From: Betaproteobacteria bacterium
GTDB taxonomy: Bacteria > Pseudomonadota > Gammaproteobacteria > Burkholderiales > SG8-41
Length of the DNA stretch: 64,000 bases
Direction: 5' to 3'
Assembly (NCBI GenBank): GCA_052389535.1
Contig: JBQTHU010000117.1
Location: 10,257-74,256, forward strand
Shown here in pieces: positions 3,455 through 61,432 of this stretch. How positions within the stretch are numbered: the stretch's first letter is position 1; every line of letters starts with the position of its first letter. The notes under the pieces are model-generated. The model saw nothing but the letters and a program-made list of their open reading frames with translations. It was not told where the DNA came from and searched no databases. A program made the translations under genes and the position numbers.

Positions 3455-3670
3455 TCACTCGGCACGCGGCTTGCCGAACGCCTGCTCGGTCAGGATCGCG
3501 TCCTCGAAGCCGTGCACGCCATGCGTGCGTGCCGGATTCATGATCACGACATAGAGCACGCCGCTCTGCCCGATGGCGTGGTCCGTGGCGGCGCGCTGCA
3601 GAAGCGGCGCGAGAAAAGCAACCGCCTGCCGCCCCGCCGCGCGGTCGATGTAACGCTCCGAATACGACAT
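3455..3670 (-). CDS. Hypothetical 71-aa protein (possibly a truncated remnant)
   Basis: ATG ORF 12 nt downstream of the ABC fusion on the same strand. I recognise no family. It ends where the convergent plus block ends. Confidence 0.35.
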   Translation of the reverse strand: MSYSERYIDRAAGRQAVAFLAPLLQRAATDHAIGQSGVLYVVIMNPARTHGVHGFEDAILTEQAFGKPRAE

Positions 3671-3682
3671 GGCCTGCTCCTT

Positions 3683-6367
3683 TCATGCACCGGACTGCAT
3701 CGACCGGGCGGTCAGGTGCGCCACCGCGGTCAGCAGCTCCTCGGGCCTGACGGGCTTGCCGAGCTGCAGCTGAAATCCCGCGAGCAGCGCCCGCGTGCGG
3801 TCCTCGCCGCTCGCCAGTGCGACGGCCGGCATGCGTTTGGCAAGCCCGGTGCCGCGTCGTTCCTCGATGGCCCGCACGCGGCGGATCACGCTGTAGCCGT
3901 CCTCATCGGGCAGCGCGATATCCGAGATCAGCACATCGGGCCATTCTGCGGGGTCGAGCGTCTCGAGTTCGCGCACGGCATCCGTGGCGCGGCCGTAACT
4001 CAGCACGCGCGCGCCGTGCCCGGCGAGCGCCGCATGCAGCCGGTCGCGGTTTTCGTCGTCATCGATCAGCACCACGGTGAGACCGGCCATGTCGGGGGCC
4101 TCGCCCGGGCCGCCGTCCGCGACGCCGAGTTGCGGCCTCGCGAGAACCGGGGGAAGTGCACTTCGCAGCGGCAGCGTCATGGCATACGAGGTGCCGGTCG
4201 CATCCTCGATCTTTACCGTCACGAGATGGCCGCCGTGCTGCTCGGCGATCGCCCGGGCGCGCAGCGTGTCCGCAAGACGGGCCGTCGTTGCGCCCCGCCA
4301 CGGTGGTTGAGCGCTCGTCCCGGATGCAGCGCCCGTGTCGGTCACCGTCAACCGGGCCGTGCCATCGGTCTGGTCAACCCGGATCTCGACGCGTCCGCCG
4401 GGCACCGTCGCGCGTATCGCGTTCGCGCACAGGTCCCACACGGCCTGCTGCAGCAGCCCGGGGTCGCCCGCGACCGGTCCATCGGATGTAATGATGGCGT
4501 AGAGGTTGATTTGCCGCTCGTCGATCTCCGGACGCAGCCCGTCGACCACACCGGCAACGACGTTCGCCAGACTCACCGGCTGGAGCGCAAGCGTGCGCTC
4601 CACGCGGCGCAGCTCGCGTTCCTGCTGCTGTACCGACCACATCTGCGCATAGATGCCGCGTCGCTCGAGCAGCGCCCCGTGAGTGCCGCGCTCGACGATG
4701 CGGCCGTGCTCGAGCACCAGGATCTCGTGGGCGCCGACCACCGTGGACATGCGGTGCGCGATGACGAGCGTGGTACGATTCTCCGCGATGCGGTCCAGCT
4801 CGGCCTGGATCGCCTGCTCCGCGCGGGCGTCGAGCGCCGAGGTGGCTTCGTCGAAGATGATGATCGGCGGGTTCTTCAGTATCGCGCGGGCGATGGCGAT
4901 GCGCTGCTTCTCGCCGCCTGAAAGCTTCAGTCCGCGCTCGCCTACGACGGTTTCATACTGATCGGGCAGCGCCGCGACGAATTCATGCACGCGCGCCGCT
5001 CGCGCCGCCGCCAGCACTTCCTCGTGCGTCGCCCCGGGATGACCGTACGCGATGTTGAAGAAAATCGTCTCGTTGAAGAGCACCGTGTCCTGCGGCACGA
5101 TCCCCACGGCGCTGCGCAGGCTCTCCTGGGTGACCCGTCGCAGTGCCTGGCCGTCGATCTCGATCGCACCCTCGCCGGCATCGTAGAAGCGCAGCAGCAG
5201 GCGCGCGATGGTGGACTTGCCGGACCCGCTCCCGCCGACCACCGCGACCGTCTCGCCCGGCGCAATCCTGAAATCGACCTCATGCAGGATGCGGCGCCCG
5301 GCGTCGTAACCGAAGCTGACGTGGGTGAAGCGCACTTCACCGTGCCGCACGACGAGCGGCCGGGCGCCGGCCTCGTTCCGTATCTCGGGCTGCGCCGCGA
5401 GCAGAAAGAAGAGGCGCTCGATGTTGATCAGGGCGTCTTTCGCCTGCCGGAACACGAAGCCGAGCGCATTGAGGGGCAGGCACACCTGGATCACATAGGC
5501 ATTCACCAGCACGAGATCGCCGACCGTCATCGTGCCGCCTGCGACGCGCACGCTGGCATACAGCATGATGGCCGCCACGCCGACGGCGATGATGCCGCTC
5601 TGCCCGATGTGCAGCATCGAAAGGTGCCGCTGGTTGCGCACGCCTGCCTCGACCCAGTCGTGCATGATCGGTCCGAAGCGCGAGCCTTCGTACCGTTCGT
5701 TCGCGTAATACTTCACCGCCTCGTAGTTGAGCAGACTGTCGACGAGCCGGCTGTTGGCGCGGGAATCGAGCTCGTTCAGCGCGCGCTGATGGATCATGCG
5801 CTGTGCGGTGAAGGCGACGGTGAAAGTGGTGTACACCGCGAAGGTGAGCGTGATGATCATCGTCGGCCAGTAGCCGTAGCCGGCCGCAATGATCGCCATC
5901 ACCGCCACGATCTCCACCAGGGTGGGCACGATGGTGAAAAGCGCCACGCCGAGGAGAAAGCCGATGCCGGCGGTGCCGCGCTCGACTTCCCGGGTGAGGC
6001 GTCCGGTCTCGCGCTGCATGTGGAAGCGCGGCGTCAGCCCGAGCAGGTGTGCGAATACCCGGGCGGTGAAATCGGCGACCGTCTGCTGCGTTACGCGCGC
6101 GAACACGAGATCGCGCAGTTCGCCGAACAGCGTTCCGCCGAAGCGCAGCAGCGCATAAGCGATCAGCATGAAGACGGGCAGTATGTACGCCGTCTGCTCG
6201 GCGCTGAAGCCGTCGATGATCTGCTTGAGCGCAATCGGCACGGCGATGGTCGCCGCCTTGGCGAGCACCAGCAGCGCCAGCGCGGCGAGGATGCGGCCGC
6301 GAAAGCGCCACGCCGCGCTCGCCAGCACCCGCAGCACGTGGCGTCCGGTGGAGCGTTCCAGAGGCAT
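3683..6367 (-). CDS. ATM1/HMT1-type ABC exporter (TMD-NBD) fused to an HATPase_c-like domain and a response-regulator receiver domain
   Basis: A single 894-codon ORF. It carries DSLLNYEAVKYYANERYE (ATM1 hallmark), Walker A GGSGSGKST, signature LSGGEKQR and Walker B IIIFDEATSALD. These are followed by the kinase-like and receiver segments listed as the next two features. Confidence 0.9.
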   Translation of the reverse strand: MPLERSTGRHVLRVLASAAWRFRGRILAALALLVLAKAATIAVPIALKQIIDGFSAEQTAYILPVFMLIAYALLRFGGTLFGELRDLVFARVTQQTVADFTARVFAHLLGLTPRFHMQRETGRLTREVERGTAGIGFLLGVALFTIVPTLVEIVAVMAIIAAGYGYWPTMIITLTFAVYTTFTVAFTAQRMIHQRALNELDSRANSRLVDSLLNYEAVKYYANERYEGSRFGPIMHDWVEAGVRNQRHLSMLHIGQSGIIAVGVAAIMLYASVRVAGGTMTVGDLVLVNAYVIQVCLPLNALGFVFRQAKDALINIERLFFLLAAQPEIRNEAGARPLVVRHGEVRFTHVSFGYDAGRRILHEVDFRIAPGETVAVVGGSGSGKSTIARLLLRFYDAGEGAIEIDGQALRRVTQESLRSAVGIVPQDTVLFNETIFFNIAYGHPGATHEEVLAAARAARVHEFVAALPDQYETVVGERGLKLSGGEKQRIAIARAILKNPPIIIFDEATSALDARAEQAIQAELDRIAENRTTLVIAHRMSTVVGAHEILVLEHGRIVERGTHGALLERRGIYAQMWSVQQQERELRRVERTLALQPVSLANVVAGVVDGLRPEIDERQINLYAIITSDGPVAGDPGLLQQAVWDLCANAIRATVPGGRVEIRVDQTDGTARLTVTDTGAASGTSAQPPWRGATTARLADTLRARAIAEQHGGHLVTVKIEDATGTSYAMTLPLRSALPPVLARPQLGVADGGPGEAPDMAGLTVVLIDDDENRDRLHAALAGHGARVLSYGRATDAVRELETLDPAEWPDVLISDIALPDEDGYSVIRRVRAIEERRGTGLAKRMPAVALASGEDRTRALLAGFQLQLGKPVRPEELLTAVAHLTARSMQSGA
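3713..4084 (-). other. Receiver (REC) domain inside the ABC fusion (aa ~762-885)
   Basis: The acidic pair VVLIDDDEN, phospho-acceptor context VLISDIALPDEDG (Asp816, nt 3920-3922), AVALAS and QLGKP (conserved Lys) are all present. Confidence 0.8.
4163..4600 (-). other. Degenerate histidine-kinase catalytic (HATPase_c-like) domain inside the ABC fusion (aa ~590-735)
   Basis: The segment has N-box-like DLCANAIRAT, G1-like VTDTGA and a C-terminal AEQHGGHLVTV...MTLPL. There is no H-box: no His occurs between aa 564 and 710. The G2 GxGLG lid is absent. Confidence 0.6.
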
Positions 6368-6412
6368 GGAGGTCGGATCAGCCGGTGCGCATGCCGCGCC
6401 GGCGCTGCCGCC

Positions 6413-7411
6413 TCAGCTCGAGCCGCCGGAAAGGGCGTGCGCCGCGCCGGAAGAGACGGCGGCACGACTACCCAGCCGCGCTGCGAAGTAATCGATCGTG
6501 CGCATGAGTCCCTGCTGCAGCGATACGCGCGGCGTCCATTTCAGGATACTGCGCGCCGCCGCGATATCCGGACAGCGCCGCACCGGGTCGTCCTGAGGCA
6601 GCGGCTTGAACTCGACGCGCGAGGACGATCCCGTCATCCGAACCACGAGCCGGGCCAGTTCCAGAACGGTGCACTCCCGCGGATTCCCGAGATTGACCGG
6701 TGCATGAAGCTTTCCGGATCTCGACATCAGGCGCACCAGGCCCTCGACAAGGTCCGTGACATAGCAGAAGGACCGCGTCTGCGAGCCATCGCCGTACACC
6801 GTGACCGTTCCGCGGCGCAACGCCTGTACGATGAAGTTCGACACCACGCGGCCGTCATCGGCCTGCATGCGCGGCCCGTAGGTGTTGAATATGCGAGCAA
6901 TCCGCGCTTCGACGCCGCGCCGCCGCCGGTAATCGGAGAAGAAGGTCTCGGCGCAGCGTTTGCCTTCGTCGTAGCAGGAGCGCGGTCCGATGGGATTTAC
7001 GTGCCCCCAGTAGGTTTCGGACTGCGGATGCACCTGGGGGTCGCCGTAGACCTCGCTGGTGGACGCCTGCAGGATCTTCGCGCCCGTGCGCTGCGCGAGT
7101 TCGAGCAGGTTCATCGCGCCGCACACGCTGCTCTTGAGCGTCTGTATCGGGTCTTCCTGATATTGCACCGGTGACGCCGGACACGCGAGGTTGTAGATCT
7201 CGTCCGCCTTCGCGTCGAGCGGTTCGACGATGTCGTGGCGCACGAAGGTGAACCGCGAGCGGCCCATGAGATGCGCGATGTTCTCCAGCGCGCCGGTACG
7301 CAGGTTGTCGACGCACAGCACCTCGTATCCGGAGTCGAGCAGGCGCTCGCAAAGATGCGAGCCGAGAAAGCCGGCACCGCCGGTGACGAGGGCCCTGCGT
7401 TCAGCCGCCAA
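6413..7411 (-). CDS. UDP-glucuronate decarboxylase (UDP-xylose synthase type) / NAD-dependent epimerase-dehydratase
   Basis: [17 protein letters not shown], a YDEGKR catalytic region and overall UXS-like sequence. Both candidate starts are TTG (7432 or 7411). 7411 has GGAAAGGA 5 nt upstream. Confidence 0.85.
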
Positions 7412-7449
7412 TGTAATCCTTTCCGTGAGCAAAATCGCTGCGCTGATGA

Positions 7450-8397
7450 TCAGCCGCGCGCCACCGAAGCGAAGGCATCGCTCCAGTCGCGCGTGAAGCG
7501 CTCGATGCCGAACCGCTGCTGCGCGCTGGCGCGGGCGCCGCGGCCCAGCCTCTGCGCCAGTTCGGGGTCGGACAGCAGCGCCTGCATGCGCGCTATGAGC
7601 CTGTCCACGTCGGTATCGCAGTAACCGTTCACCCCGTCTCTGATCAGAGTCGGCATTTCGGTCGTCGCCAACGCCACGATGGGCAGCCCCACCATCATCG
7701 TTTCGATGACCGCGAGCCCGAGGCTCGTGTAGCGGATCGGGTTGAACAGGAAGCGATATTGCGCCGCAAAGCAGGGAAGATCGGCGTGCCGTATTTCACC
7801 CAGCCCGCCGCACTCCTCCGCACCCATGCCGACGAGATCGAGCGGAACGTGCCGCCGGACCTGATCGAATATATCGGCGCCCAGCCGCCGGCCCCGGCGT
7901 GCGAGGTGATTCACGATCACCAGCCCGCGCGCCACGTCGCCCGAGTAGCGAGCGCGCTCCGGCGCCACGACGCCGTGCTCGATCACCCGCGTCGGCGTGC
8001 GGCCGCTGTCCCACATCAGCCGGTTGAAGGGCGTCACGTGCACGAGCAAGACCTCCGGATCGTCCACCGGATGGCGCGTATCGGTGGGATGCTCGCGTGG
8101 CGGATCGTGCTCGAGATAGATGCGTGGAAGGCGCCGCTGCGCCGCGCTCAGATATTCGTACTGGTCGCGCAGATACTGCGCGTCGTCCTGGAACAGGATG
8201 CAGTCGAGCGGCTGCTCGCGCGCCGCGGCGACCGGCAGATCGTGCACGTTCGCGCCCCACGGCAGGTGTCCCCAGCGCCCGGTATAGCCGGGCGGGCGGT
8301 CCGGCTTCGACAGCACGTAGAACTCGTGCGGCACCTGCGCGAGGTAATAGAGGTAGCTGCCGTGGGTATGCCACGTGAGGATCTTCAGCGCACGCAT
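7450..8397 (-). CDS. Group 1 (GT-B) glycosyltransferase
   Basis: The internal start [15 protein letters not shown] was verified as cat at 8395-8397. The C-terminal [17 protein letters not shown] is a GT1 EX7E-like region. It overlaps the upstream GT9 stop by 13 nt. Confidence 0.8.
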
Positions 8398-9509
8398 GTC
8401 CGGGCGATGTCCCTCGGTGTGGATTTCCGCAGCATCGACCGCGCCTCGCCAATGACGGCGGCGGGGTGCACGCCGGTCGCGCACGGGTGGCCGATCGGAC
8501 AGATCTCGTACGCGCAAGGGCGACACTCAACCGGATGGTGCAGCACGCGGTGCCGGTCCGTGTCGAGCGGCGCCCAGCGCCGGAAGTCCGAGCCACTGCA
8601 TACGATGACGCTCGGTGTACGCACCGCCGCAGCGATATGTGAAACCCCCGTATCGTTCGCGACGAGCAGTCGCGCGTCCCCGATCAGCACGGCGAGCGCG
8701 CCGAGCGTCGTGGCGCCACTGAGATCGACTGCGGTATGGCGCATCGCTCCGAGGACGCTCCGTGCCAGCGCGCTTTCGCCCGCGGTGCCGGTGATGACGA
8801 CCTGGCAACCGTCGGACGCCAGCGCATCGGCCACCGCGGCGAAGCACTCGGCGCCCCAGCGCCGCGATGGCAGCTGCGAGCCGGGATGAACACACACATA
8901 GCGCGACGTGTCGATACCGCTTCGCGCGGCGAGCGCCGCCCACGCGTTGCGGTCATCTGCGCTCACCGGAAACTCCAGGCTGGTATCGCAGGCCGCGATG
9001 CCCAGTTCGCGCATCAGGCGCACGTAGCGCACGATTTCGTGCTCGTCTTCCCGCCACGGAAAAAACCGCTCGGGGTCCGGACCATAGCCGCGCGGCTCGT
9101 GATAGCCGGCGCACAGACGGGCGCCAAAGAGCGCCACGACAGCGTTGGTGAGCCGGCCGCTGCCGTGCAATTGCAGGGCCAGGTCATAGCGGCGGCCCTG
9201 CACCATGCTCAGGAACTCCGGAATCCGGCGCACCTCGCAACGTTCCGGCAGGCCGGGATAACCGGGAAATTCCGCGAAATCGTCGATGTAGCGTTTGAAG
9301 CGCGCGACAAACTCGCGCGCCCACGGCAGTCCCGCGAGCGTAATGCGCGCGCGCGGGCACGCCTGGCGCAGCGCGCGCAAAGCCGGCACCGCACACAGCA
9401 TGTCGCCAAGCTGCAGCGCGCGCAGGATGATGATGCTCCCCGGGGATGCGAGCCGGTTGTTCGTTCGCGCGCCGTCCGCGGATCGCTCACGCATGCCGCG
9501 CTCACGCAT
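8385..9509 (-). CDS. Family 9 glycosyltransferase (heptosyltransferase-like)
   Basis: IIILRALQLGDMLCAVPALRALR and the C-terminal Cys cluster CRPCAYEICPIGHPC are typical of GT9. The start is ATG 9509 or 9494; both lie in a 15-bp tandem duplication. Confidence 0.8.
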   Translation of the reverse strand: MRERGMRERSADGARTNNRLASPGSIIILRALQLGDMLCAVPALRALRQACPRARITLAGLPWAREFVARFKRYIDDFAEFPGYPGLPERCEVRRIPEFLSMVQGRRYDLALQLHGSGRLTNAVVALFGARLCAGYHEPRGYGPDPERFFPWREDEHEIVRYVRLMRELGIAACDTSLEFPVSADDRNAWAALAARSGIDTSRYVCVHPGSQLPSRRWGAECFAAVADALASDGCQVVITGTAGESALARSVLGAMRHTAVDLSGATTLGALAVLIGDARLLVANDTGVSHIAAAVRTPSVIVCSGSDFRRWAPLDTDRHRVLHHPVECRPCAYEICPIGHPCATGVHPAAVIGEARSMLRKSTPRDIARTCVR

Positions 9510-9514
9510 GCCGC
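9485..9514. repeat. Perfect 15-bp tandem duplication (gctcacgcatgccgc x2) spanning the stop/start junction of two genes
   Basis: Read directly: 9485-9499 equals 9500-9514. Each copy carries, on the minus strand, ATGCGTGA, which holds both an ATG and an out-of-frame TGA. Confidence 0.9.
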
Positions 9515-11226
9515 GTCTTCTCGAGGATGCAGGGGCCGATGACCAGCGCATCGAGCGGGGAGGTCATGAAACAGCGCACCGCGTCCTGCGGCGTGCACAC
9601 GATGGGCTCGCCCTGCGTGTTGAACGAGGTGTTGACCAGCACCGGCACGCCGGTGCGGCGTGCGAATGCCTCGATCAGCCGGTGGTAGAGCGGATGCTGG
9701 GCGCGGTTCACGGTCTGGATGCGCGCCGTCCCATCGACGTGGCAAACGCCCGGTATGCGGTCGGCGCGCTCGCGCACCACGTCGTGAATGAAGAGCATGA
9801 ATGGCGAGACGCCGGCGCCGACGAACCAGTCCGCAGCCTCCTCTTCCAGCACGACCGGCGCGACGGGGCGAAAGTCCTCGCGGTCCTTGATGGCGTTCAA
9901 CCGGTGCTGGATCTCCGCGGTGAGCGGAGAGGCGAGTATGGAGCGCGCCCCGAGCGCGCGCGGCCCGTATTCCATGCGCCCCTGGAACCAGCCGACGATG
10001 CGATCGGCGGCCAGTATCGCCGCCGTCTCTTCCGCAACGTCGTCCGCGCGGCGATACGGCAGCTTGGCGTAATCGAGCAGCGACCTGATGTCCTGCTCAG
10101 AGTACTCCGGCCCGAGGAACGCGTGCTCCATCTGCCACGAGCGCTCGCCGCGCGCGCGCCAATCGGTCCACAACGCCGCGCCGATTGCGGTGCCGGAATC
10201 GCCGGCAGCCGGCTGGACCCATACGCGGCGAAACAGGCCGGCATCGCGCACGCGCGCGTTCATCACGCAGTTGAGCGCGACCCCCCCTGCCAGGCACAGG
10301 TTGTCCGAGCCGGTCTCGTCCCTGAGCCAGCGCGCGAGCGCGACGACGGTCTCCTCCAGCACGAGCTGCAGCGAGCGCGCGATATCGAAGTGGCGCTCGC
10401 CGAACTCGGCGCCGCGTTCGCGTGCCGGCCCGAAGCGCTCGGCAAGCCGCAACGGTGCAATCGCGTACTGCCCGTTTCCGGACACTTGCACGATTTCACG
10501 GAAAGCGTCGGCGTACACCGGCTTGCCGTAGGAGGCGAGCGCCATCACCTTGTATTCGTCGGAGGAATGCAGGAATCCCAGGTGGCGCGTGACCTCCTCG
10601 TACAGCAGGCCCAGCGAATGCGGGACGCAAACCTGGCCGATCCGCCGGTATTCACGGCCCGTGTAATGTCCGTAGCAGGTACTGGCGCGCTCGCCGCGGC
10701 CGTCGAGCGTCATCACCGCCGTGTCTTCGAACGGCGCGGCAAGGAACGCGCTCGCCTCGTGCGACAGGTGATGGTCCACGAATCTCCAGTTCCACCTGCG
10801 TTGCGTCCTCGCACGCCTGAACCGCCGCTTCAGATGAAACGGCGCACCGTCTATCAATTGCCGTTCGGCGTTCACCACGTAGGAGAGCGACAGCGGCTCC
10901 CACGGTGAGAGCCAATCCGCGGAAGTATCATGCGCGCTCGGCTCGAGCGGCAGCGTGATCGTCGCATCGTGCCGGCGCTCGCCCAGCACCACGCCGGGGT
11001 TGAAGGAATAGGCGACGTAATCCAGATCGGAAAGCTCGATGCCTGCCGCGCCGAGACAGTAATCGATTGCGTGAAACGGCAGTTCCCAGGTGGTGAAAGG
11101 AACCGGCCGCTTGCCATGTTTGACCCGCGTAAAGCGCTCCTCTTCTGCAGCGGCCACCACTTTCCCGTCGCGGACGAGGCAGGCAGCGGAGTCGTGAAAT
11201 ACGGCGTTGATGCCGAGCGTCAGCAT
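9502..11226 (-). CDS. NodU/CmcH-family O-carbamoyltransferase
   Basis: The start MLTLGINAVFHDSAACLV was verified as cat at 11224-11226. The FVDHHLSHEASAF metal motif is present and the length (574 aa) is typical of the family. Confidence 0.9.
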   Translation of the reverse strand: MLTLGINAVFHDSAACLVRDGKVVAAAEEERFTRVKHGKRPVPFTTWELPFHAIDYCLGAAGIELSDLDYVAYSFNPGVVLGERRHDATITLPLEPSAHDTSADWLSPWEPLSLSYVVNAERQLIDGAPFHLKRRFRRARTQRRWNWRFVDHHLSHEASAFLAAPFEDTAVMTLDGRGERASTCYGHYTGREYRRIGQVCVPHSLGLLYEEVTRHLGFLHSSDEYKVMALASYGKPVYADAFREIVQVSGNGQYAIAPLRLAERFGPARERGAEFGERHFDIARSLQLVLEETVVALARWLRDETGSDNLCLAGGVALNCVMNARVRDAGLFRRVWVQPAAGDSGTAIGAALWTDWRARGERSWQMEHAFLGPEYSEQDIRSLLDYAKLPYRRADDVAEETAAILAADRIVGWFQGRMEYGPRALGARSILASPLTAEIQHRLNAIKDREDFRPVAPVVLEEEAADWFVGAGVSPFMLFIHDVVRERADRIPGVCHVDGTARIQTVNRAQHPLYHRLIEAFARRTGVPVLVNTSFNTQGEPIVCTPQDAVRCFMTSPLDALVIGPCILEKTRHA

Positions 11227-11237
11227 GCAGCCTCTCT

Positions 11238-12383
11238 TCAGTGGACGGTGGCGTACAGCGCCAGTGGACCGGTCGCGGAAGGCTCGCCGATGCCCGCTGA
11301 AGCGGGCTCGTTCAGCAGCCGCTCGGCCGCGGCCGCCACCGTTTCCGGCGCCACCCCGGCGAGACAGGCGTGATGCCCCGCAGGGCATACGCTGCGGTAG
11401 CAGAACCGGCACGGCACGTCGCAGAACAGCACTTCGCTCCGCACCTGCCACGGCGCGTGCTGGGGATTGGTAAGCGCGTAGAGATCGACGACCGGCGTGC
11501 CGAGTGCAGCGGCGATATGGACCGGCCCGGTGTTGTTCGCGACGAGGAGGGACGCCCGCTCCAGCAGCGCACCCAGTTGCGCGACGTCGAGTTGTCCGGC
11601 AAGCGAGTACGAGGCGCGCGCCATCGCCTGGCGTATGCCTTCCACCAGATGCGTCTCTTCCGCACTGCCGGTGAATACGACGGCCGCTTCAGAAAGACGC
11701 TGCAAAAGAAGGTCCATCGCCTGTGCATAGCGCAGCGCCGGGTAGCGGCGGGAGGCCGCGCTCGCGCCGGGATGTACGGCGATGAGCGTCGCGCGCTCGT
11801 CGATGCCGGCACGCGCCAGCGCGCGCTTCGTCGATGCCCACGCGCACGGCGGCACGGCAAAGGAAAGCCGCTCATCGTCGGTGCGGCAGCCTATCGTCGC
11901 GGCGAGATCGAGATGGCGCCGCACCTCGTGCCGTATGCGCTCGAGCGGTTCCGGGTCCCGGACCCAGTCGGTCAACAGCCCGTAGGGATTCTCGCGGCAG
12001 TGCGCGAGCCGCAGCGGAATACCCGCGAGATAGCACAGGTATGCGGCAGGCAGCGGATTCTGGCTGTATACCGTGAAGATCACGGCCGCATCGAACCGCC
12101 GGCGCTTCAGTTCCTCGATGAGCGCCGCATCGTGCGGCGGAGCGCTCCCGGCCGGCTTCATCCACGGCGCATCGAAGGCGATCGCCTCGTCCACGTCCGG
12201 AATGAACGGCGCAACCGCGGCGCCGGAGCGGGAGGTGAGGAGCGTCAGCCTGCGTCCGGCCGCGCCCCGCCTCAGCGCCCGCAGCGCCGGCGTCGTCATC
12301 AGCACGTCGCCCATGCTGTCGAGCCGCACGCACAACACCCGATCGGCGCGGCGCCAGCCCAGCGTGCCCGGCGTGCCGTTCAT
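11238..12383 (-). CDS. Family 9 glycosyltransferase (heptosyltransferase-like)
   Basis: The start is MNGTPGTL (cat at 12381-12383). RVLCVRLDSMGDVLMTTPALRAL and the C-terminal CRFCYRSVCPAGHHAC are GT9-like. It forms an ATGA overlap with the upstream gene. Confidence 0.85.
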   Translation of the reverse strand: MNGTPGTLGWRRADRVLCVRLDSMGDVLMTTPALRALRRGAAGRRLTLLTSRSGAAVAPFIPDVDEAIAFDAPWMKPAGSAPPHDAALIEELKRRRFDAAVIFTVYSQNPLPAAYLCYLAGIPLRLAHCRENPYGLLTDWVRDPEPLERIRHEVRRHLDLAATIGCRTDDERLSFAVPPCAWASTKRALARAGIDERATLIAVHPGASAASRRYPALRYAQAMDLLLQRLSEAAVVFTGSAEETHLVEGIRQAMARASYSLAGQLDVAQLGALLERASLLVANNTGPVHIAAALGTPVVDLYALTNPQHAPWQVRSEVLFCDVPCRFCYRSVCPAGHHACLAGVAPETVAAAAERLLNEPASAGIGEPSATGPLALYATVH

Positions 12384-12973
12384 TGCGCCGCGCGACTCCC
12401 GGCGCGGCTCGCGAGGATGATCTGCGCCGCGGCCAGGAGGTCCTCGGCGAGCGCCTCGGGCCAGCGTTGGCCGCTCATGTCCCACTCCGTCTCGTTGCCG
12501 TTGTCGATGAGGATGGTGCGGCAGCGTGCGCGCCGCCCCGCCTCGATGTCGTCCAGGATGTCGCCCACCATCCAGGAGCGCGTAAGCTCGATGCCGTGCT
12601 CGCGCGCCGCCTGTGTGAGCAAGCCGCTGTCGGGCTTGCGACAGGCGCAATGGACGGCATAGTCCGGCAATGCTCCATGCGGATGGTGCGGGCAGTAGTA
12701 AAAACCTTCGAGCCTGACCCCGCGCTCGCCGAGTTCCTCGCTGATGTGGCGCTCCACCCTGCTCAATGCCTGCTCGGAGAACCGGCCGAGCGCGACGCCG
12801 GGCTGATTCGATACAACGAACAGGCGGAATCCCCGGTCGGCGAGCAGGCGCAAACCCTCGACGGCGCCCGGTGTGAAACGGATGAATGCCGGATCGACGT
12901 TGTACGGCACGTTCTCGATCAGCGTGCCATCCTTGTCGAGAAACACGGCGCGCCCGCCCTGCTTCACGGCCAT
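12380..12973 (-). CDS. HAD-IIIA phosphatase, D,D-heptose 1,7-bisphosphate phosphatase (GmhB)-like
   Basis: AVFLDKDGTLI (DxDGT), VVSNQ, the Zn motif YYCPHHP...CACRKP and MVGD are present. The start MAVKQGG was verified (cat at 12971-12973). Confidence 0.85.
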   Translation of the reverse strand: MAVKQGGRAVFLDKDGTLIENVPYNVDPAFIRFTPGAVEGLRLLADRGFRLFVVSNQPGVALGRFSEQALSRVERHISEELGERGVRLEGFYYCPHHPHGALPDYAVHCACRKPDSGLLTQAAREHGIELTRSWMVGDILDDIEAGRRARCRTILIDNGNETEWDMSGQRWPEALAEDLLAAAQIILASRAGSRAAQ

Positions 12974-13689
12974 GACGTCTCCCGCATCGGCAGCACCATT
13001 ATCTCCGGTATGACGGTCTCGTCGGGCTGCGTCAGAATGAATTTCACCGCGGCGGCGACGTGGGCGGGATCCTGCAGCACGCCCGGATCGATATCGGGAA
13101 AGCGATCGAGCAGAAACGGCGTCCTCATGCCTCCCGCGATCACCGCGCTCACCTTGATCCGGCGCGGACGCAGTTCCGCATGGAGCGCATGCGTGAGCCC
13201 GAGCAGCCCCCACTTGCTCGCGTGATACGCGGAGGCGTTGGGCCAGGCGCGGCGCGCAGCGGTCGAGGCGATGTTGACGATATGCCCGCCGCCCTGCCGT
13301 TCCATGACTGCACCCGCGAACTTGGAAAGCAGGAACGGACCGCGCAGGTTGGTCGCAATGACGGCGTCCCACTGCGCAACGCTCAGTTCACTGAGCGGCA
13401 GGGTGTGGTCCACCGCCGCGTTATTGACGAGGATGTCCAGTTTCCCGTAGCGCTCCCGCACTTGCGCTACGCACGTTCGCGCGCTGTCTTCGTTGCGCAC
13501 GTCGAGCTTCCACGCCGCGCAGCGGCCACCGTCGCGCTCGAGCGTCCCGGCGAGCGCGCGGGCCCGCTCCAGGTCGAGATCCGCAATGGCCACGAGCGCA
13601 TGCTCGCCCACGAGCGCCCGCGCGATCTCCGCGCCCAGACCGCGCCCGGCACCGCTGACGATCGCGACGCGTCCCTCGAGCATGCTCAT
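12964..13689 (-). CDS. Short-chain dehydrogenase/reductase
   Basis: VSGAGRGLG cofactor motif, NNAAV and the YHASK catalytic motif. It overlaps the downstream gene by 10 nt and the upstream gene by 4 nt. Confidence 0.85.
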   Translation of the reverse strand: MSMLEGRVAIVSGAGRGLGAEIARALVGEHALVAIADLDLERARALAGTLERDGGRCAAWKLDVRNEDSARTCVAQVRERYGKLDILVNNAAVDHTLPLSELSVAQWDAVIATNLRGPFLLSKFAGAVMERQGGGHIVNIASTAARRAWPNASAYHASKWGLLGLTHALHAELRPRRIKVSAVIAGGMRTPFLLDRFPDIDPGVLQDPAHVAAAVKFILTQPDETVIPEIMVLPMRETSWP

Positions 13690-14996
13690 CGCGCGGAGAC
13701 CCGGGTTGGCTGCTGAAACGCGCTGCCCGCGGAGGCGTGCTTGCCGCCGGCGAATTCCGCGCTGTTGCGGGGCGCCAGCTCGTCGTACAACGCCGCCATG
13801 GAGCGTGCGACGCGCTCCCAGGTGAAGTGCTTCTGTACCCGCTTCAGGCCGTTACGGCCGAACCGCGCGAGCAGGGGAGGATTGCGATAGAGGTCGGCCA
13901 GCCGGCTCGCCAGCGCGTCCGGATCGTTGGGCGGGATGAGATAGCCGGTAACGCCGTCCACCACGCTGTGCTTGATGCCGCCCACCGCGGAGCCCACGAC
14001 CGGCGTCCCGCACGCCATGGCTTCGAGCGGCGTGATGCCGAACGGCTCGTACCAGGGCGTGGTCACGAACACGTCGGCGGCGCTGTAATAGAGTTTGAGC
14101 ACTTCGCGGCTGCGCCGCCCGGTGAAAAGCGTCTGCTCGCCGACGCCTTCCGACCGCGCGATCTCACGCAGCCGCGCGAGTTCCGGAGTCGCCGCGCAAT
14201 CCGGCGCATCGGTGTTTCCCCCTATGATCACCAGGCGCGGCCGCATCCCGCTGCACCGCGCGAGGCGGCCCAGCGCGCGTATCACGTTGTCGACACCCTT
14301 GCGCGGCACCATGCGCCCGATGTGCAGCACGATGCGCTCGTCGCTGTCGAAACCGAGCAGGCGCCGCGCGAAGGCGCGCCGTACGGGCCAGAATTCCCGC
14401 GCGTCAAAACCGCACGGGATGGTGCGGATCTTGTCGCGCTCCGCGCCATACAGCGAAATCAAGTCGAGGCAGTCCTGCGGACATTCCGCGATGATGGCGT
14501 CGGCATGCTCTACCGTTCGGTCCTCGATGTCGATGCGCTCATCCGGGAACTGGTCGGCTTCCCGCTGGTGCAGGCGTCTCACGCGCCCGAGCGCATGAAA
14601 CGTGACGACGAACGGTATGCCGAACAGCTGCTTCAGGCCGAGCGCCACCATGCCCGACATGAAGAAATTGGCATGCACGACGTCATAGCCGGCTTCCCGG
14701 TCGCAGAACTGGGCGACGCGCGCGGTGAACTCCGGCATGACCGGAAGCATCGACTCCTTGCGCAGGGCGTCCTCGGGACCGGCGCGCACGTGCACGACGC
14801 GCAGGCCTTTCGCCACTTCGACGACTTCGGGCAGCGCAGGATTGTCGCGCCGGGTGAAGACGTCGAGCTCGTATCCCAGAGCGTGAACGTGACGCGCGAT
14901 GCTGGCTACATAGATGTTCTGGCCGCCGCTGTCGATGCCGCCGGCAACCGCCAGCGGGGAAGCGTGGTCACTGATGACTGCGATCCTGCTCGCCAT
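13686..14996 (-). CDS. Group 1 glycosyltransferase, sucrose-phosphate-synthase-like GT-B
   Basis: ISDHASPLAVAGGIDSGGQNIYV is an SPS-like N-domain and EPFGITPLEAMACGTPVV is the GT1 signature. SD AGGAG lies 5 nt upstream of ATG 14996. Confidence 0.85.
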   Translation of the reverse strand: MASRIAVISDHASPLAVAGGIDSGGQNIYVASIARHVHALGYELDVFTRRDNPALPEVVEVAKGLRVVHVRAGPEDALRKESMLPVMPEFTARVAQFCDREAGYDVVHANFFMSGMVALGLKQLFGIPFVVTFHALGRVRRLHQREADQFPDERIDIEDRTVEHADAIIAECPQDCLDLISLYGAERDKIRTIPCGFDAREFWPVRRAFARRLLGFDSDERIVLHIGRMVPRKGVDNVIRALGRLARCSGMRPRLVIIGGNTDAPDCAATPELARLREIARSEGVGEQTLFTGRRSREVLKLYYSAADVFVTTPWYEPFGITPLEAMACGTPVVGSAVGGIKHSVVDGVTGYLIPPNDPDALASRLADLYRNPPLLARFGRNGLKRVQKHFTWERVARSMAALYDELAPRNSAEFAGGKHASAGSAFQQPTRVSAR

Positions 14997-15093
14997 AGTA
15001 CTCCTGTATTACCGTTGGCATCGAAAGCGACGTAACTGGAGGTCTCGCCACAGCGGGCGCCCATGCGGGCGGAAAGAACGGCGCATGGGGTGC

Positions 15094-15109
15094 AGCAAAC
15101 CGCATGCCA
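15094..15109 (-). promoter_or_regulatory. Sigma-54-type -24/-12 promoter candidate for the glycan operon
   Basis: The minus-strand sequence is TGGCATGCGGTTTGCT, against the consensus TGGCACG-N4-TTGCW. The GG to GC spacing is correct. It lies about 87-100 nt upstream of ATG 14996. Confidence 0.5.
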
Positions 15110-15324
15110 CTTCTCGAAGCACACTGCGGCCCGCGCGCGCCAGACGCCGTGCGCCGCGTGAAGCGGTGCTCGCTCGATACAAGCCGCTTTAACTGCCGCC
15201 AGCTCGCCCCGCCGCCGCCCGCACGGAGCAGCCTCGTCGTGGAAGCAGTTTTTCCCGTGCCGCTGCGTAAGATTTACCGGGCAGAGCGTTCGCTGCTTTT
15301 CCGCGGCACGGGCAGCGCCGCACT

Positions 15325-15340
15325 CGGCATGTCCATTGCT
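15325..15340 (+). promoter_or_regulatory. Weaker sigma-54-type -24/-12 candidate upstream of the metallothionein-SDR gene
   Basis: The plus-strand sequence is CGGCATGTCCATTGCT. Spacing is correct but the first base is C instead of T. It ends 25 nt before ATG 15365, which would leave a very short leader without an SD. Confidence 0.3.
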
Positions 15341-15364
15341 TCTGCGCAGGCGAGTCGCAACCCA

Positions 15365-15532
15365 ATGACGCAGCGTTCGGACCCATCGAAATGCAGGCAT
15401 GCCACGTGCGAATGCACCGTGGAATCGAGTCTCGCCTACTGCTGCGAATACTGCGCGCGGGCCGACCAGCAGGAGACCGGCGCCTACCAGCACCATGCAT
15501 GCGAATGCGGCCATCCTGAATGCAGCCAGGAG
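15365..15532 (+). other. Cys/His-rich metallothionein-like domain (8 Cys, 4 His in the first 53 aa)
   Basis: The pattern C-x-H-x2-C-x-C ... C-C-x2-C-A ... C-x-C-G-H-x2-C parallels SmtA as I recall it (KCACEPCLCNV ... YYCSEACA ... GCGHTGCNC). Confidence 0.65.
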
Positions 15533-16474
15533 CCGGGCCGCGGCGAACCGGCGCACGCACGAGGAGTGAAGACGGAAATCGACGAAAAACAGGCGAAGCC
15601 GCAGATCCAGACCGAGCCGAAACCGCGCTTCCCGGAGCAGCACCAGCCTGCGCCCGGATTGGAGGCGAGACTGCAGCCGCGTCCGCGCTATGAAGCGCGC
15701 CGCTATCGCGCCGCAGGTAAGCTCGACGGCAAAGCGGCGCTCGTCACCGGCGGCGATTCCGGCATCGGCCGGGCGGTGGCCGTGCTGTACGCACGGGAAG
15801 GTGCCGACGTTGCCATCGCCTACCTGCCGGAGGAACAGCCTGACGCTGAAGAGACGGCCCGTGCGGCGAAGGCCGAGGGGCGCCGTTGCGTACTGCTGCC
15901 GGGAAACCTCATGGACCCCGAGGCGTGCACCGCAGCGGTTGAAAACACCGTGTCGCAACTCGGGAAGCTCGACATTCTTGTATCCAACGCCGCCTACCAG
16001 CGCCGCAAGGAAAACATCGAGGACATCGCCGACGAGGAATTCGATCGCACGTTCCGGACCGATATGTACGCCTATTTCTTTCTCGCGCGGGCCGCGCTGC
16101 GCCACATGAAAGCGGGCAGCGCGATCATCGCCACCAGCTCGGTTACCGCGCTGAGAGGCTCGAAGGCGCTGCTCGACTACTCCTCAACCAAAGGGGCGAT
16201 CAATGCCTTCACGCAGTCGCTCGCCCTGAGTGTCGTCGAGCGCGGCATACGCGTGAACGCCGTTGCGGCCGGACCGGTCTGGACGCCTCTCAACCCTTCG
16301 GACGGCGGGCTCTCCCCGGAGAAAGTCGCCGAATTCGGCAAGTCGACCCCGCTCGGCCGCCCGGCGCAGCCTGAGGAACTGGCGCCCGCGTACGTCTTCC
16401 TTGCCTCGGACGCCGATTCCTCCTACATCACCGGGATTGTGTTGCAGGTCACCGGGGGCGAGATCACAGCCTGA
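15365..16474 (+). CDS. Fusion protein: BmtA/SmtA-like bacterial metallothionein domain + YghA/YhxC-type SDR oxidoreductase
   Basis: The N-terminus is KCRHATCECTVESSLAYCCEYCA...HHACECGHPEC. A K/E/P/Q linker follows, then FPEQHQPAPGLE...GKLDGKAALVTGGDSGIGRA, NAAY and the SDR core. There is no stop codon between the domains. Confidence 0.8.
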   Translation: MTQRSDPSKCRHATCECTVESSLAYCCEYCARADQQETGAYQHHACECGHPECSQEPGRGEPAHARGVKTEIDEKQAKPQIQTEPKPRFPEQHQPAPGLEARLQPRPRYEARRYRAAGKLDGKAALVTGGDSGIGRAVAVLYAREGADVAIAYLPEEQPDAEETARAAKAEGRRCVLLPGNLMDPEACTAAVENTVSQLGKLDILVSNAAYQRRKENIEDIADEEFDRTFRTDMYAYFFLARAALRHMKAGSAIIATSSVTALRGSKALLDYSSTKGAINAFTQSLALSVVERGIRVNAVAAGPVWTPLNPSDGGLSPEKVAEFGKSTPLGRPAQPEELAPAYVFLASDADSSYITGIVLQVTGGEITA

Positions 16475-16497
16475 ATCCCGGTGCGCTCGCAGGCGGC

Positions 16498-16968
16498 TCA
16501 CTGCTGCATTTCGGGGGTCTCTTTCATCAGTTCCTGCTTGCGGGCCAGCATCTGTTCGCCCAGTCCCGCAAGGTCGATCTTCGCCTTCCTCGCCTTGGGA
16601 AACATTTCCTTCTGCTCTTCGGCGATGTGATGGTTGACGTACTCGCCGAGCACCGTGAACTTGGCATCGTACATCTCATCGCCCGGTTCCATCTGCTCGA
16701 GCTGTGAAATGAGTTCCTTTGCAGCCTGGTGCTCGACCAGCGCTTCGTCCATCAGATCGTCGTCCTCGATCGCCTCGCGTACCGCGGGGTAGACGATTTC
16801 GTTTTCGAGCCGGGTATGGACTTTCAGCTCGGCGCACGCCTGCCGGACGAGCTGCGCCTTTTCCTCGGATTCATCAAGCTTCTCGAAGTCCTTGAACATC
16901 TTCTTGACCTTGTCGTGATCCGCCTTGAGCATGGCGAGAGCATCGGTCCTGGTCGATTTGCGGGGCAT
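16498..16968 (-). CDS. Hemerythrin (HHE cation-binding) domain protein
   Basis: The start MPRKSTRTD has AAGGAG 8 nt upstream. The His/Glu ligand pattern is LKADHDKV, HTRLENEIVYP, EHQAAKE and VNHHIAEEQ. Confidence 0.85.
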   Translation of the reverse strand: MPRKSTRTDALAMLKADHDKVKKMFKDFEKLDESEEKAQLVRQACAELKVHTRLENEIVYPAVREAIEDDDLMDEALVEHQAAKELISQLEQMEPGDEMYDAKFTVLGEYVNHHIAEEQKEMFPKARKAKIDLAGLGEQMLARKQELMKETPEMQQ

Positions 16969-17004
16969 GAGCACTCTCCTTGGGTTGAACGCCCCCCACG
17001 GAGG

Positions 17005-17020
17005 AGCAAAGTCCATACCA
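17005..17020 (-). promoter_or_regulatory. Sigma-54-type -24/-12 candidate upstream of the hemerythrin gene
   Basis: The minus-strand sequence is TGGTATGGACTTTGCT, with correct spacing, and matches the 15094-15109 element at 12 of 16 positions. It lies 37-52 nt upstream of ATG 16968, leaving room for the SD. Confidence 0.4.
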
Positions 17021-17133
17021 CCGCTACCGGATGCGAAGCAGGCGGCTGCGGGACGTGCTGCGCGCCCTCCCGCCGTTGCTTGTTTACCGCCGCTTGTAAA
17101 TTTTTCGTGGCATGGCGCTCGCGCGAGACGCGC

Positions 17134-18108
17134 TCATTCCGCTTCTAGCTTCGCTTCCTGCACCACCCTGGTCCAGCGGGCGATCTCGGCTTTCACGTGC
17201 GCCGAGAATCCGTCGGGCGTCGTGGTCGACACGGCGATGCCCTGATCCTCGAGGCGCTGCCGCAGCGGGCTTCCGCCTGCAAGCAGCCGGTTGAGATCGG
17301 CATTGATCTTCGTGATGATGGCGGGCGCCACCTTCGACTGGGTGCAGAGGCCGTACCACCCGGTGACATCGTAGTTCGGCACACCCTGCTCGGCGAAGGT
17401 CGGCACGTCGGGCACCTGGGGATTGCGCTTGCCGGAAGTCACGCCCAGCGCGCGCACTTTCTTCGCCCGTATCGCGCCGAGCGGGCCGCCGGCCAGGTTC
17501 CCCACCGAGGATTCCATGTGGCCGCTCATGACATCGGCAAGCGCGGCAGCGGCCCCCTTGTAGGGCACGTGAACGATGTCTATGCCGGCGGTCATCTTGA
17601 AAAGCTCTATCGAAAGATGCGGCGATGCGCCGACTCCTGACGATCCGAAATTGACCTTGCCGGGATGCGCCTTGGCGTAGGCGACGAACTCCTTCAGGTT
17701 CCGGGTCGGCATGGAAGGATGGACCATGAAGACGTTCGGCACGCCGCCGATCATCGCCGGAAACGCGAAATCGCCGATCGGGTCGTAGGTGAGCCGCTTG
17801 CGGAACCGCGCCGGGGTGACGCTGTGCGAGCCGATGTTGCAGAGAACCAGCGTATGGCCGTCGGGCGCGGCGCGCGCCGTCGCCTCGGTCGCGATGTTCC
17901 CCGCCGCGCCGGGTCGATTCTCGACCAGCACGTTCGTGCCCCATGCTTCGCTCAACGCCGCCGCAACGATGCGCGCAGTCGTATCGACGCCGCCGCCCGG
18001 AACATAGCCCACCATGATGCGCACCGGCTTGCTGGGATACGTTTGCGCGCAGGCAAGGCCTGCGTAGAGAACGGAAAGCGCGACGAGCGCCCTGGCGCAT
18101 GCTTTCAT
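17134..18108 (-). CDS. Bug/TctC-family tripartite tricarboxylate transporter substrate-binding protein
   Basis: Signal peptide, then QTYPSKPVRIMVGYVPGGGVDTTARI...NRPGAAGNIA, the typical Bug-family N-terminus. Confidence 0.9.
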   Translation of the reverse strand: MKACARALVALSVLYAGLACAQTYPSKPVRIMVGYVPGGGVDTTARIVAAALSEAWGTNVLVENRPGAAGNIATEATARAAPDGHTLVLCNIGSHSVTPARFRKRLTYDPIGDFAFPAMIGGVPNVFMVHPSMPTRNLKEFVAYAKAHPGKVNFGSSGVGASPHLSIELFKMTAGIDIVHVPYKGAAAALADVMSGHMESSVGNLAGGPLGAIRAKKVRALGVTSGKRNPQVPDVPTFAEQGVPNYDVTGWYGLCTQSKVAPAIITKINADLNRLLAGGSPLRQRLEDQGIAVSTTTPDGFSAHVKAEIARWTRVVQEAKLEAE

Positions 18109-60390: not shown

Positions 60391-61127
60391 CAATCCTGCA
60401 GCATGCGGCAGAGGCTGTAGAGTATGCCGGCGGTCGCGCCCCAGATGTAGCGCCCCTCGTAGGGGATCGCCATGTAATGGCGGTGGCGCCCGCGGAAGTG
60501 GTACTGCCGCCGCTGGTAGTGGGCGGCATCGAGAAAGTACGCGAGCGGCGCCTCGAATACGGCTTCCACCTCGAACGGATCGAGCGTGAGATCGAAGGAC
60601 GGCTCGATCCACCCGACCACCGGCGTGATGCGGAATCCCGATGGAATCTCGTAGTCGGGCAGACGACCGAGCACCCGCACGCGGGCGCGCTCGAGGCCGA
60701 TCTCCTCCCCGGTCTCGCGCAGCGCGGTGTCATCCCGCGAGGCGTCCCCGGGCTCCACCCGCCCCCCGGGGAAACTGATCTGGCCGGCATGGTCCGCCAG
60801 GTGTGCCGTGCGTTGGGTGAAGAGGACGCTGGGGTGCGACCCCCGGCATACCAGCGGCACCAGCACGGCGGCGTCGGTGACGCGGGTGCCCTCGGCCAGC
60901 GCCATGACATGCAGGTCGTCCGGGTCGGGCGGCGGCGCCGGGCGTGCCAGGCGCTGCACGATGGTCTCGCGCGAAGGGTGGAATATCCGGCGGACCGAGG
61001 GTGTTAGTGGCGTTGTAGCCAAGTGAATCAGGAATATGCCTTGCCGCAATTGTACCTGCGCTGTCGCCGGACGGCACGGCACAGGGATTGCACCCGTGGT
61101 TGTGTGGGGCGTTCGCACGGCATACAC
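60390..61127 (-). CDS. Nudix hydrolase, CoA pyrophosphatase (NudL-like)
   Basis: VLFTQRTAHLADHAGQISFPGG together with the Nudix box GRVEPGD...ALRETGEEIGL. The start is uncertain and the ORF may begin downstream of 61127. Confidence 0.8.
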   Translation of the reverse strand: MYAVRTPHTTTGAIPVPCRPATAQVQLRQGIFLIHLATTPLTPSVRRIFHPSRETIVQRLARPAPPPDPDDLHVMALAEGTRVTDAAVLVPLVCRGSHPSVLFTQRTAHLADHAGQISFPGGRVEPGDASRDDTALRETGEEIGLERARVRVLGRLPDYEIPSGFRITPVVGWIEPSFDLTLDPFEVEAVFEAPLAYFLDAAHYQRRQYHFRGRHRHYMAIPYEGRYIWGATAGILYSLCRMLQD

Positions 61128-61172: not shown

Positions 61173-61418
61173 ATGAAGATCAGCAGTCTCATCGTAGCTT
61201 GCGCTTTTGCCATTGCCAGCAGCACCGCATTCGCCGGCACCTGCCCGAAACACATGAAGTCTATCGATGCCGCGCTCGCCAAGAATCCGAAGCTGACCGA
61301 GCAGCAGATGTCAGACGTGAAGAAACACCGCGCCGACGGCGAGAAACTGCACAAGGAAGGCAAGCACGGCGAATCGTTGGAGGCGCTTGCCAAAGCCGAA
61401 AAAATCCTCGGCATTTAG
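61173..61418 (+). CDS. Small secreted protein (81 aa), unknown function
   Basis: SD GAGAGGAG, signal peptide MKISSLIVACAFAIASSTAFAG, and a Lys/Glu/His-rich helical mature part. Local GC is lower than in the flanks. Confidence 0.6.
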   Translation: MKISSLIVACAFAIASSTAFAGTCPKHMKSIDAALAKNPKLTEQQMSDVKKHRADGEKLHKEGKHGESLEALAKAEKILGI

Positions 61419-61432
61419 CAGCGACATCTCCT

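Follow-up and report, generated by a model that had tools for sequence, protein, structure and literature searches.

Three conserved -24/-12 sites, probably sigma-54 promoters, ahead of a glycan operon, a Cys-rich-peptide/SDR gene and a hemerythrin gene in an uncultured betaproteobacterium

The locus and its three -24/-12 sites

This analysis concerns a stretch of 64,000 nucleotides from a Betaproteobacteria bacterium (assembly GCA_052389535.1, contig JBQTHU010000117.1), hereafter the window, which has a G+C content of 65.8% and whose nearest relatives are uncultured Burkholderiales. Three 16-bp sites of the sigma-54 (-24/-12) type lie in it, ahead of an operon for glycoconjugate synthesis, a gene for a cysteine-rich (Cys-rich) peptide fused to a short-chain dehydrogenase/reductase (SDR), and a gene for a hemerythrin-domain protein. 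An earlier note on this DNA had proposed that these sites join the three units into one sigma-54 regulon. When the sequence was checked directly, all three 16-mers read exactly as the note gave them, each keeps the GG-N10-GC spacing and the TTGCT -12 box, and sites 1 (glycan) and 3 (hemerythrin) are identical at 12 of 16 positions. The ranks listed below are out of the ~128,000 window positions scored with a sigma-54 matrix; this matrix was rebuilt from the published consensus and is approximate, and its bit scores are indicative only.

15109-15094, minus strand: site 1, predicted sigma-54 promoter of the glycan operon, TGGCATGCGGTTTGCT; GG at 15108/15107, GC at 15096/15095; 18.2 bits, rank 2
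15325-15340, plus strand: site 2, predicted sigma-54 promoter of the Cys-rich-peptide/SDR gene, CGGCATGTCCATTGCT; 15.2 bits, rank 6
17020-17005, minus strand: site 3, predicted sigma-54 promoter of the hemerythrin-domain gene, TGGTATGGACTTTGCT; 18.6 bits, rank 1
3455-14996, minus strand: operon for glycoconjugate synthesis and export, ~11.5 kb, faced by site 1
15365-16474, plus strand: gene in which a Cys/His-rich peptide is fused to a YghA/PRK06701-type SDR, start set by ortholog alignment
16498-16968, minus strand: gene for a hemerythrin (HHE) domain protein of 156 aa, with a Pfam Hemerythrin domain

The longest open reading frames (ORFs) run over sites 2 and 3. Ortholog alignments place the real starts at 15365 and 16968, and both sites are therefore intergenic; with gene starts set in this way, all three sites lie between genes and point in the direction of their own gene, as had been claimed. 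From the end of the motif to the ATG there are 97 nt at the glycan operon, 24 nt at the SDR gene and 36 nt at the hemerythrin gene (33-36 nt in its orthologs), where an AAGGAG Shine-Dalgarno sequence at 16980-16975 of the minus strand stands 6 nt ahead of the ATG at 16968. Judged from the motif positions, transcription would start near 15083 for the glycan operon (leader ~87 nt), near 15351 for the Cys-rich/SDR gene (~14 nt), and near 16994 for the hemerythrin gene (~26 nt). A scan of these intergenic regions found no sigma-70-like promoter, its terminator-like matches were at background level, and an Rfam search of 14000-18000 found no Rfam element.

The glycan operon encodes, in order, a glycosyltransferase of type GT4 (MshA-like), an SDR, an HAD phosphatase, a GT9, a carbamoyltransferase, a second GT9, a GT1-like protein, an epimerase/dehydratase, an MsbA-like ABC exporter with HATPase and REC domains, and a small ORF. 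The exporter (3683-6412, minus strand, 909 aa), the product of the last large gene, carries HATPase_c and response-regulator receiver domains at its C-terminus, behind a transmembrane domain and an ATPase; a transporter joined to signalling domains in this way is unusual.

In the related loci L001 (5226-5404, and from 5441), L081 and L131 (peptide at 873-1052), two distinct ORFs encode the Cys-rich peptide and the SDR. In the window the ATG of the SDR is replaced by ACG and the frames are merged into a single ORF; the same fused gene call of 456 aa is found in the independent Logan contig L161. The earlier note called the peptide part a metallothionein. It has no Pfam or NCBIfam match, no significant PDB match, and only 3 unnamed homologs among 5.8 billion proteins; the label goes back to the Cys/His richness and to a parallel with PA2140 of Pseudomonas aeruginosa. 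The hemerythrin-domain protein scores 87.7 bits (E = 6.8e-25) against NF053874, the family of the ribosome-binding persister protein PA2171, which lies below the equivalog cutoff of 190 bits, and 17.6 bits against the RIC/YtfE family. By these scores it is a distant relative of the PA2171 family and not an equivalog.

Chance expectation and conservation in relatives

The strict pattern GGYAYN5TTGCW matches the window 4 times, while 0.70 +/- 0.81 matches are expected from dinucleotide shuffles, and none of 100 shuffles produced 4. A looser pattern, allowing two mismatches, gives 22 matches where 28 are expected and shows no enrichment. The fourth strict match contradicts the statement of the earlier note that the other intergenic regions hold only look-alikes with wrong spacing, since it is correctly spaced:

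61077-61092, plus strand: fourth strict match, a rejected look-alike, CGGCACAGGGATTGCA; intergenic, correctly oriented, upstream of a PF27144 gene
61174-61419, plus strand: gene for a small secreted PF27144 (PA14_33160-family) protein, downstream of the fourth site

As a member of the regulon this site was rejected. It is absent from the orthologous loci L162, L164 and L166, which keep a sigma-70-like TTGTG-N17-TACACT where it would be. The site fits the ~0.7 strict matches due to chance and serves as a negative control: because it is not conserved, the conservation of such sites is not automatic. Two GGAATATSC repeats are found nearby, at 60980 and 61031. A further match at 17343-17358 of the minus strand (TGGTACGGCCTCTGCA, 15.8 bits) was also discarded. 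It encodes W-Y-G-L-C within a TctC gene and recurs in all relatives because the TctC protein is conserved, and is a coding-driven false positive.

Four genomes are syntenic over the locus: the window, L001, L081 (with L082 and L083) and L087. In 4/4 of them all three sites are kept at orthologous places. The glycan and SDR sites read as follows.

Glycan site: window TGGCATGCGGTTTGCT; L001 TGGCATGCGGATTGCT; L081 TGGCATGCGGTTTGCT; L087 TGGCATGTCCTTTGCT
SDR site: window CGGCATGTCCATTGCT; L001 CGGCATGCAGCTTGCT; L081 CGGCATAGCCATTGCT; L087 CGGCACGCCCCTTGCT

The substitutions across the four genomes are confined to the degenerate -26 position and the spacer. The hemerythrin site can be followed further. 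In all ten loci in which the ortholog has an identity of at least 79% and the upstream region is included, it reads TGGTATGGA[C/G]TTTGCT and ends 33-36 nt before the ATG; where ortholog identity is 68% or less, it is missing. In an alignment of 8 distinct sequences upstream of the hemerythrin gene, 15 of the 16 promoter columns are invariant, compared with 14 of the 147 other upstream columns.

The SDR site scores at least 12 bits in 9 of 10 orthologs with an identity of at least 72%. L002, L004, L005 and L006 all have it, with a double UvrA-like gene (~1,940 aa) upstream in place of the glycan operon. In L002 (2-5833), L005 and L006, which are metagenome-assembled genomes (MAGs) of Burkholderiales or Betaproteobacteria, the SDR gene directly follows the double UvrA-like ORF, and the sigma-54 site begins at most 10 nt from its stop. 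More distant SDR orthologs (L025, L026, L034, L038, L055, L064 and L073; ~5770-5890), from Piscinibacter, Azohydromonas, Pelomonas, Hydrogenophaga and one Burkholderiaceae MAG, carry GGCAC-N5-CTGCY, again with the GG-N10-GC spacing, ~40-60 nt before the start codon. These matches suggest that sigma-54 control of this SDR may be widespread in Burkholderiales. L131 (1076-2420) has a very strong site of 20.7 bits, TGGCACGTTACTTGCA, at the head of an operon whose genes are DUF883/YqjD-like, holin-3_6/YqjE-like, Cys-rich peptide and SDR. A second, divergent site there, TGGCACGGATGTTGCG, points towards a YihY/BrkB-like gene; the YqjD-, YqjE- and YihY/BrkB-like labels are given from Pfam matches below threshold.

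Other arrangements are seen at greater distance. The Pyrinomonadaceae (Acidobacteria) loci L016-L019 and L023 have a sigma-54-like site, CGGCACAAATATTGCT (~6920), immediately after the SDR ortholog and ahead of a gene for a BON-domain lipoprotein (L017, 7000-7593). Hemerythrin homologs with ~42% identity (L138-L159) carry a palindrome-like CGGCACG-N3-CGTGCG 20-26 nt before the start codon, probably the operator of a different regulator.

Upstream elements and the question of a common activator

Upstream of the promoters lie the following conserved or semi-conserved blocks.

17107-17094, minus strand: AT-rich invariant element CGAAAAATTTACAA, candidate upstream activating sequence (UAS) of the hemerythrin promoter, centred near -106
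15265-15280, plus strand: conserved element GCGTAAGATTTACCGG of the SDR promoter, centred near -78, 44-49 bp from the GG
15242-15257, plus strand: T-tract block GAAGCAGTTTTTCCCG, directly ahead of the SDR element and conserved in the four syntenic genomes
15161-15173, no strand assigned: semi-conserved block AAGCGGTGCTCGC, candidate separate UAS of the glycan promoter, centred near -84, 47-54 bp from the GG

All 14 columns of CGAAAAATTTACAA are invariant among the 8 distinct sequences; apart from it and the promoter, no island ahead of the hemerythrin gene is invariant. Depending on the genome, the element lies 67, 77 or 88-90 bp from the -24 GG. Measured along the helix these distances would be steps of one turn, as expected of a protein that must face the holoenzyme. 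The SDR element GCGTAAGATTTACCGG is identical in the window, L001, L081 and L087. Both elements contain the core CGWAARATTTAC, oriented alike with respect to their genes. Exact matches to AARATTTACM occur in the window only in these two elements, and in the fetched loci only at these orthologous places and in one unrelated match.

The glycan and SDR promoters stand back to back, 181-218 bp apart. At the position of the glycan block, L001 and L087 carry a palindrome, AGCGCTATAGCGCT, and the sequence of the block bears no relation to the ATTTAC element. From that element to the glycan GG the distances are 158, 151, 146 and 126 bp, with no constant phase.

No known activator site is conserved upstream of the hemerythrin promoter among those sought: NorR GT-N7-AC, NifA TGT-N10-ACA, NtrC-like sites, the TyrR box and IHF. 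NorR-type GT-N7-AC has 0 or 1 non-conserved matches in the 170 bp upstream in 11 orthologous sequences, and the IHF consensus WATCAANNNNTTR has no match on either strand. The earlier note had placed the activator outside the window, and this agrees with what was found: a search for the GAFTGA motif found no enhancer-binding protein encoded in the window, and a tblastn of the window with the activator taken from L014 gave a best E of 0.16. Among the related loci, an activator lies alongside only in L014, a distant Thermoanaerobaculia locus. The window has no ORF with an RpoN box; to our knowledge, rpoN is near-universal in Proteobacteria. The Burkholderiaceae MAG L055 has an rpoN gene, with the RpoN box ARRTVTKYR, at ~10789 of the plus strand, ~4.8 kb downstream of its SDR ortholog.

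RNA polymerase carrying sigma-54 forms a closed complex on the -24 GG and -12 TGC elements, and transcription starts only once an ATP-hydrolysing AAA+ enhancer-binding protein, bound upstream, contacts the holoenzyme by DNA looping. At the three promoters described here, the RpoN holoenzyme would form such a closed complex, and an upstream AAA+ activator would drive its ATP-dependent opening through looping. The hemerythrin and Cys-rich/SDR promoters may be co-activated through the shared, helically phased CGWAARATTTAC, bound by an activator encoded outside the window; from the motif evidence this is plausible, and we consider the case for it evenly balanced. The glycan operon would also depend on sigma-54, probably using its own AGCG..CGCT block, possibly together with the shared element ~150 bp off in the divergent intergenic region. 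That it answers to the same activator as the other two units is a weaker proposal, and one that we doubt.

We consider it very probable that the three sites are genuine sigma-54 promoters. In agreement with the earlier note, they behave as such: conserved -24 and -12 boxes enclose a variable spacer, the start codon lies at a fixed distance, and no sigma-70-like alternative was found. Several observations weigh against this, in addition to the approximate nature of the matrix. Site 2 has a C, not a T, at -26, its leader in the window is only ~14 nt and has no visible Shine-Dalgarno sequence, and the SDR ortholog in L003 (74% identity) is without the site. The 16-mers might instead be bound by some other DNA-binding protein, and indeed motif conservation alone cannot name its reader. 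That explanation is very improbable in view of the bipartite conservation, in which GGCA or GGTA and TTGC are fixed, exactly 10 bp separate GG from GC and the intervening bases vary; of the occurrence of the pattern in three unrelated gene contexts and across genera; and of the fixed short distance to start codons with no alternative promoter found. Matches without function are to be expected in a window of this size, as the chance match at 61077 and the coding look-alike at 17343 illustrate, but the three sites are conserved at orthologous positions while the flanking intergenic DNA falls to ~10% invariant columns, and the comparative data effectively refute a chance origin.

Whether sigma-54 promoters in one place amount to one regulon is a different question, and here the claim of a single regulon with a single activator held only in part: the hemerythrin and SDR promoters do share an element, but the glycan promoter has a different block and SDR promoters in other genomes lack the element. 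One enhancer-binding protein for all three units would be helped by the position of the ATTTAC element between the back-to-back glycan and SDR promoters, within looping range of both, and by the synteny of all three units in four genomes. On the other side stand the unrelated proximal block of the glycan promoter and the inconstant spacing between the ATTTAC element and the glycan GG; and since Proteobacteria typically carry many activators, a shared sigma-54 does not imply a shared signal. Taken together, a single activator for all three appears unlikely. The other reading keeps all three as real sigma-54 promoters with separate activators, and takes the ATTTAC element as an architectural or bending site, or as the site of an unrelated regulator, and not as a shared enhancer. 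Several features of the element suit this reading and count against its being a common enhancer: it is short, AT-rich and not clearly palindromic, it adjoins a T-tract, its place near -78 of the SDR promoter is one typical of bending proteins, and the spacings there (44-49 bp) keep phase only loosely. No known UAS and no IHF consensus matches it, and SDR promoters beyond the close clade lack it but keep their predicted site; it was not found at phased positions in L131 or in the more distant SDR promoters. Yet an IHF-type bend finds no match to its consensus, and at the hemerythrin promoter the element sits at -96 to -119, in the usual range of enhancers, with nothing conserved further upstream in the intergenic DNA. 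We hold separate activators to be possible, if somewhat doubtful.

Known systems and biological meaning

The sites are new instances of a well-known element type and not a new kind of element. The sigma-54 consensus, as reported by Barrios and colleagues in 1999, is TGGCACG-N4-TTGCW. Like canonical sigma-54 promoters, the sites have GG and GC 10 bp apart, a TTGCT box, an intergenic position and, at about -78 to -119, a conserved upstream element; unlike them, they have GGCATG or GGTATG in place of GGCACG as the -24 box, and no recognisable IHF site.

NorA is a di-iron, hemerythrin-like protein. In Ralstonia eutropha, norAB is transcribed from NorR-dependent sigma-54 promoters with three tandem GT-N7-AC sites (PMC1274295). 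As in the window, a sigma-54 promoter there precedes a gene of the hemerythrin fold in a betaproteobacterium. The window differs in that three tandem NorR sites are absent, no norR or norB lies nearby, and the protein is nearer to PA2171 than to RIC/YtfE. The suggestion of the earlier note that the hemerythrin is a sensor of O2, NO or iron was not borne out, with PA2171 as the nearest family and no NorR-type sites.

Polysaccharide loci under sigma-54 include Bep of Burkholderia cenocepacia and syp of Vibrio fischeri, whose activators, BerB and SypG, are encoded in or near the loci (berB, sypG). In V. fischeri syp, neighbouring sigma-54 promoters may share an enhancer motif. The window resembles these loci in having a glycosyltransferase and exporter operon behind a sigma-54 promoter; unlike in them, no activator gene is adjacent, and the operon includes a GT4, two GT9, a carbamoyltransferase and an MsbA-like exporter. 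Control of envelope glycan genes, and of the bacterial exterior, by sigma-54 is an established theme (Francke et al. 2011, PMC3162934).

The closest parallel in gene types is the PA2134-PA2192 stress and biofilm locus of P. aeruginosa, which includes PA2140, a probable metallothionein, PA2142, an SDR, and PA2171, a hemerythrin-like protein (PMC3224232, PMC9262955, PMC13041383). PA2171 acts as a repressor of translation and of FtsZ polymerisation; no regulator of it is known in Pseudomonas (PMC13041383). In both places a Cys-rich peptide, an SDR and a hemerythrin occur together, with genes of glycan or sugar metabolism near; the likeness holds for gene types and not for any established orthology, the hemerythrin being below the family cutoff. 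While the genes in the window carry predicted sigma-54 promoters, the P. aeruginosa locus is controlled by quorum sensing and RpoS (PMC3224232, PMC9262955).

This parallel, like the set of genes itself, speaks for a stress or dormancy response and not for O2/NO/iron sensing: the window has a PA2171-like hemerythrin, a YghA-type SDR and a Cys-rich peptide, and L131 adds YqjD/YqjE-like genes. A tentative extension, which we put forward as a possibility short of probable, is a sigma-54 dormancy or general-stress regulon in uncultured soil Betaproteobacteria. In it, gene types that are under RpoS or quorum-sensing control in Gammaproteobacteria, among them the Cys-rich peptide as a metal-binding one, the YqjD/YqjE-like ones as stress proteins associated with ribosome and membrane, and an envelope glycoconjugate operon, would have been rewired to sigma-54 and an uncharacterised activator acting on CGWAARATTTAC as a new, phased 12-bp element.

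The interest of the finding is modest and lies in stress and dormancy genes that would be wired to sigma-54 through an uncharacterised, phased candidate enhancer motif. Because sigma-54 promoters switch on only through a dedicated, signal-sensing activator, these genes would be tightly gated. The analysis assigns a likely regulatory mechanism to a PA2171-related hemerythrin protein and, across Burkholderiales, to a widespread stress-type dehydrogenase, and it defines a candidate enhancer motif that is open to test. It also suggests sigma-54 control of a stress and dormancy gene set in a soil lineage known only from metagenomes.

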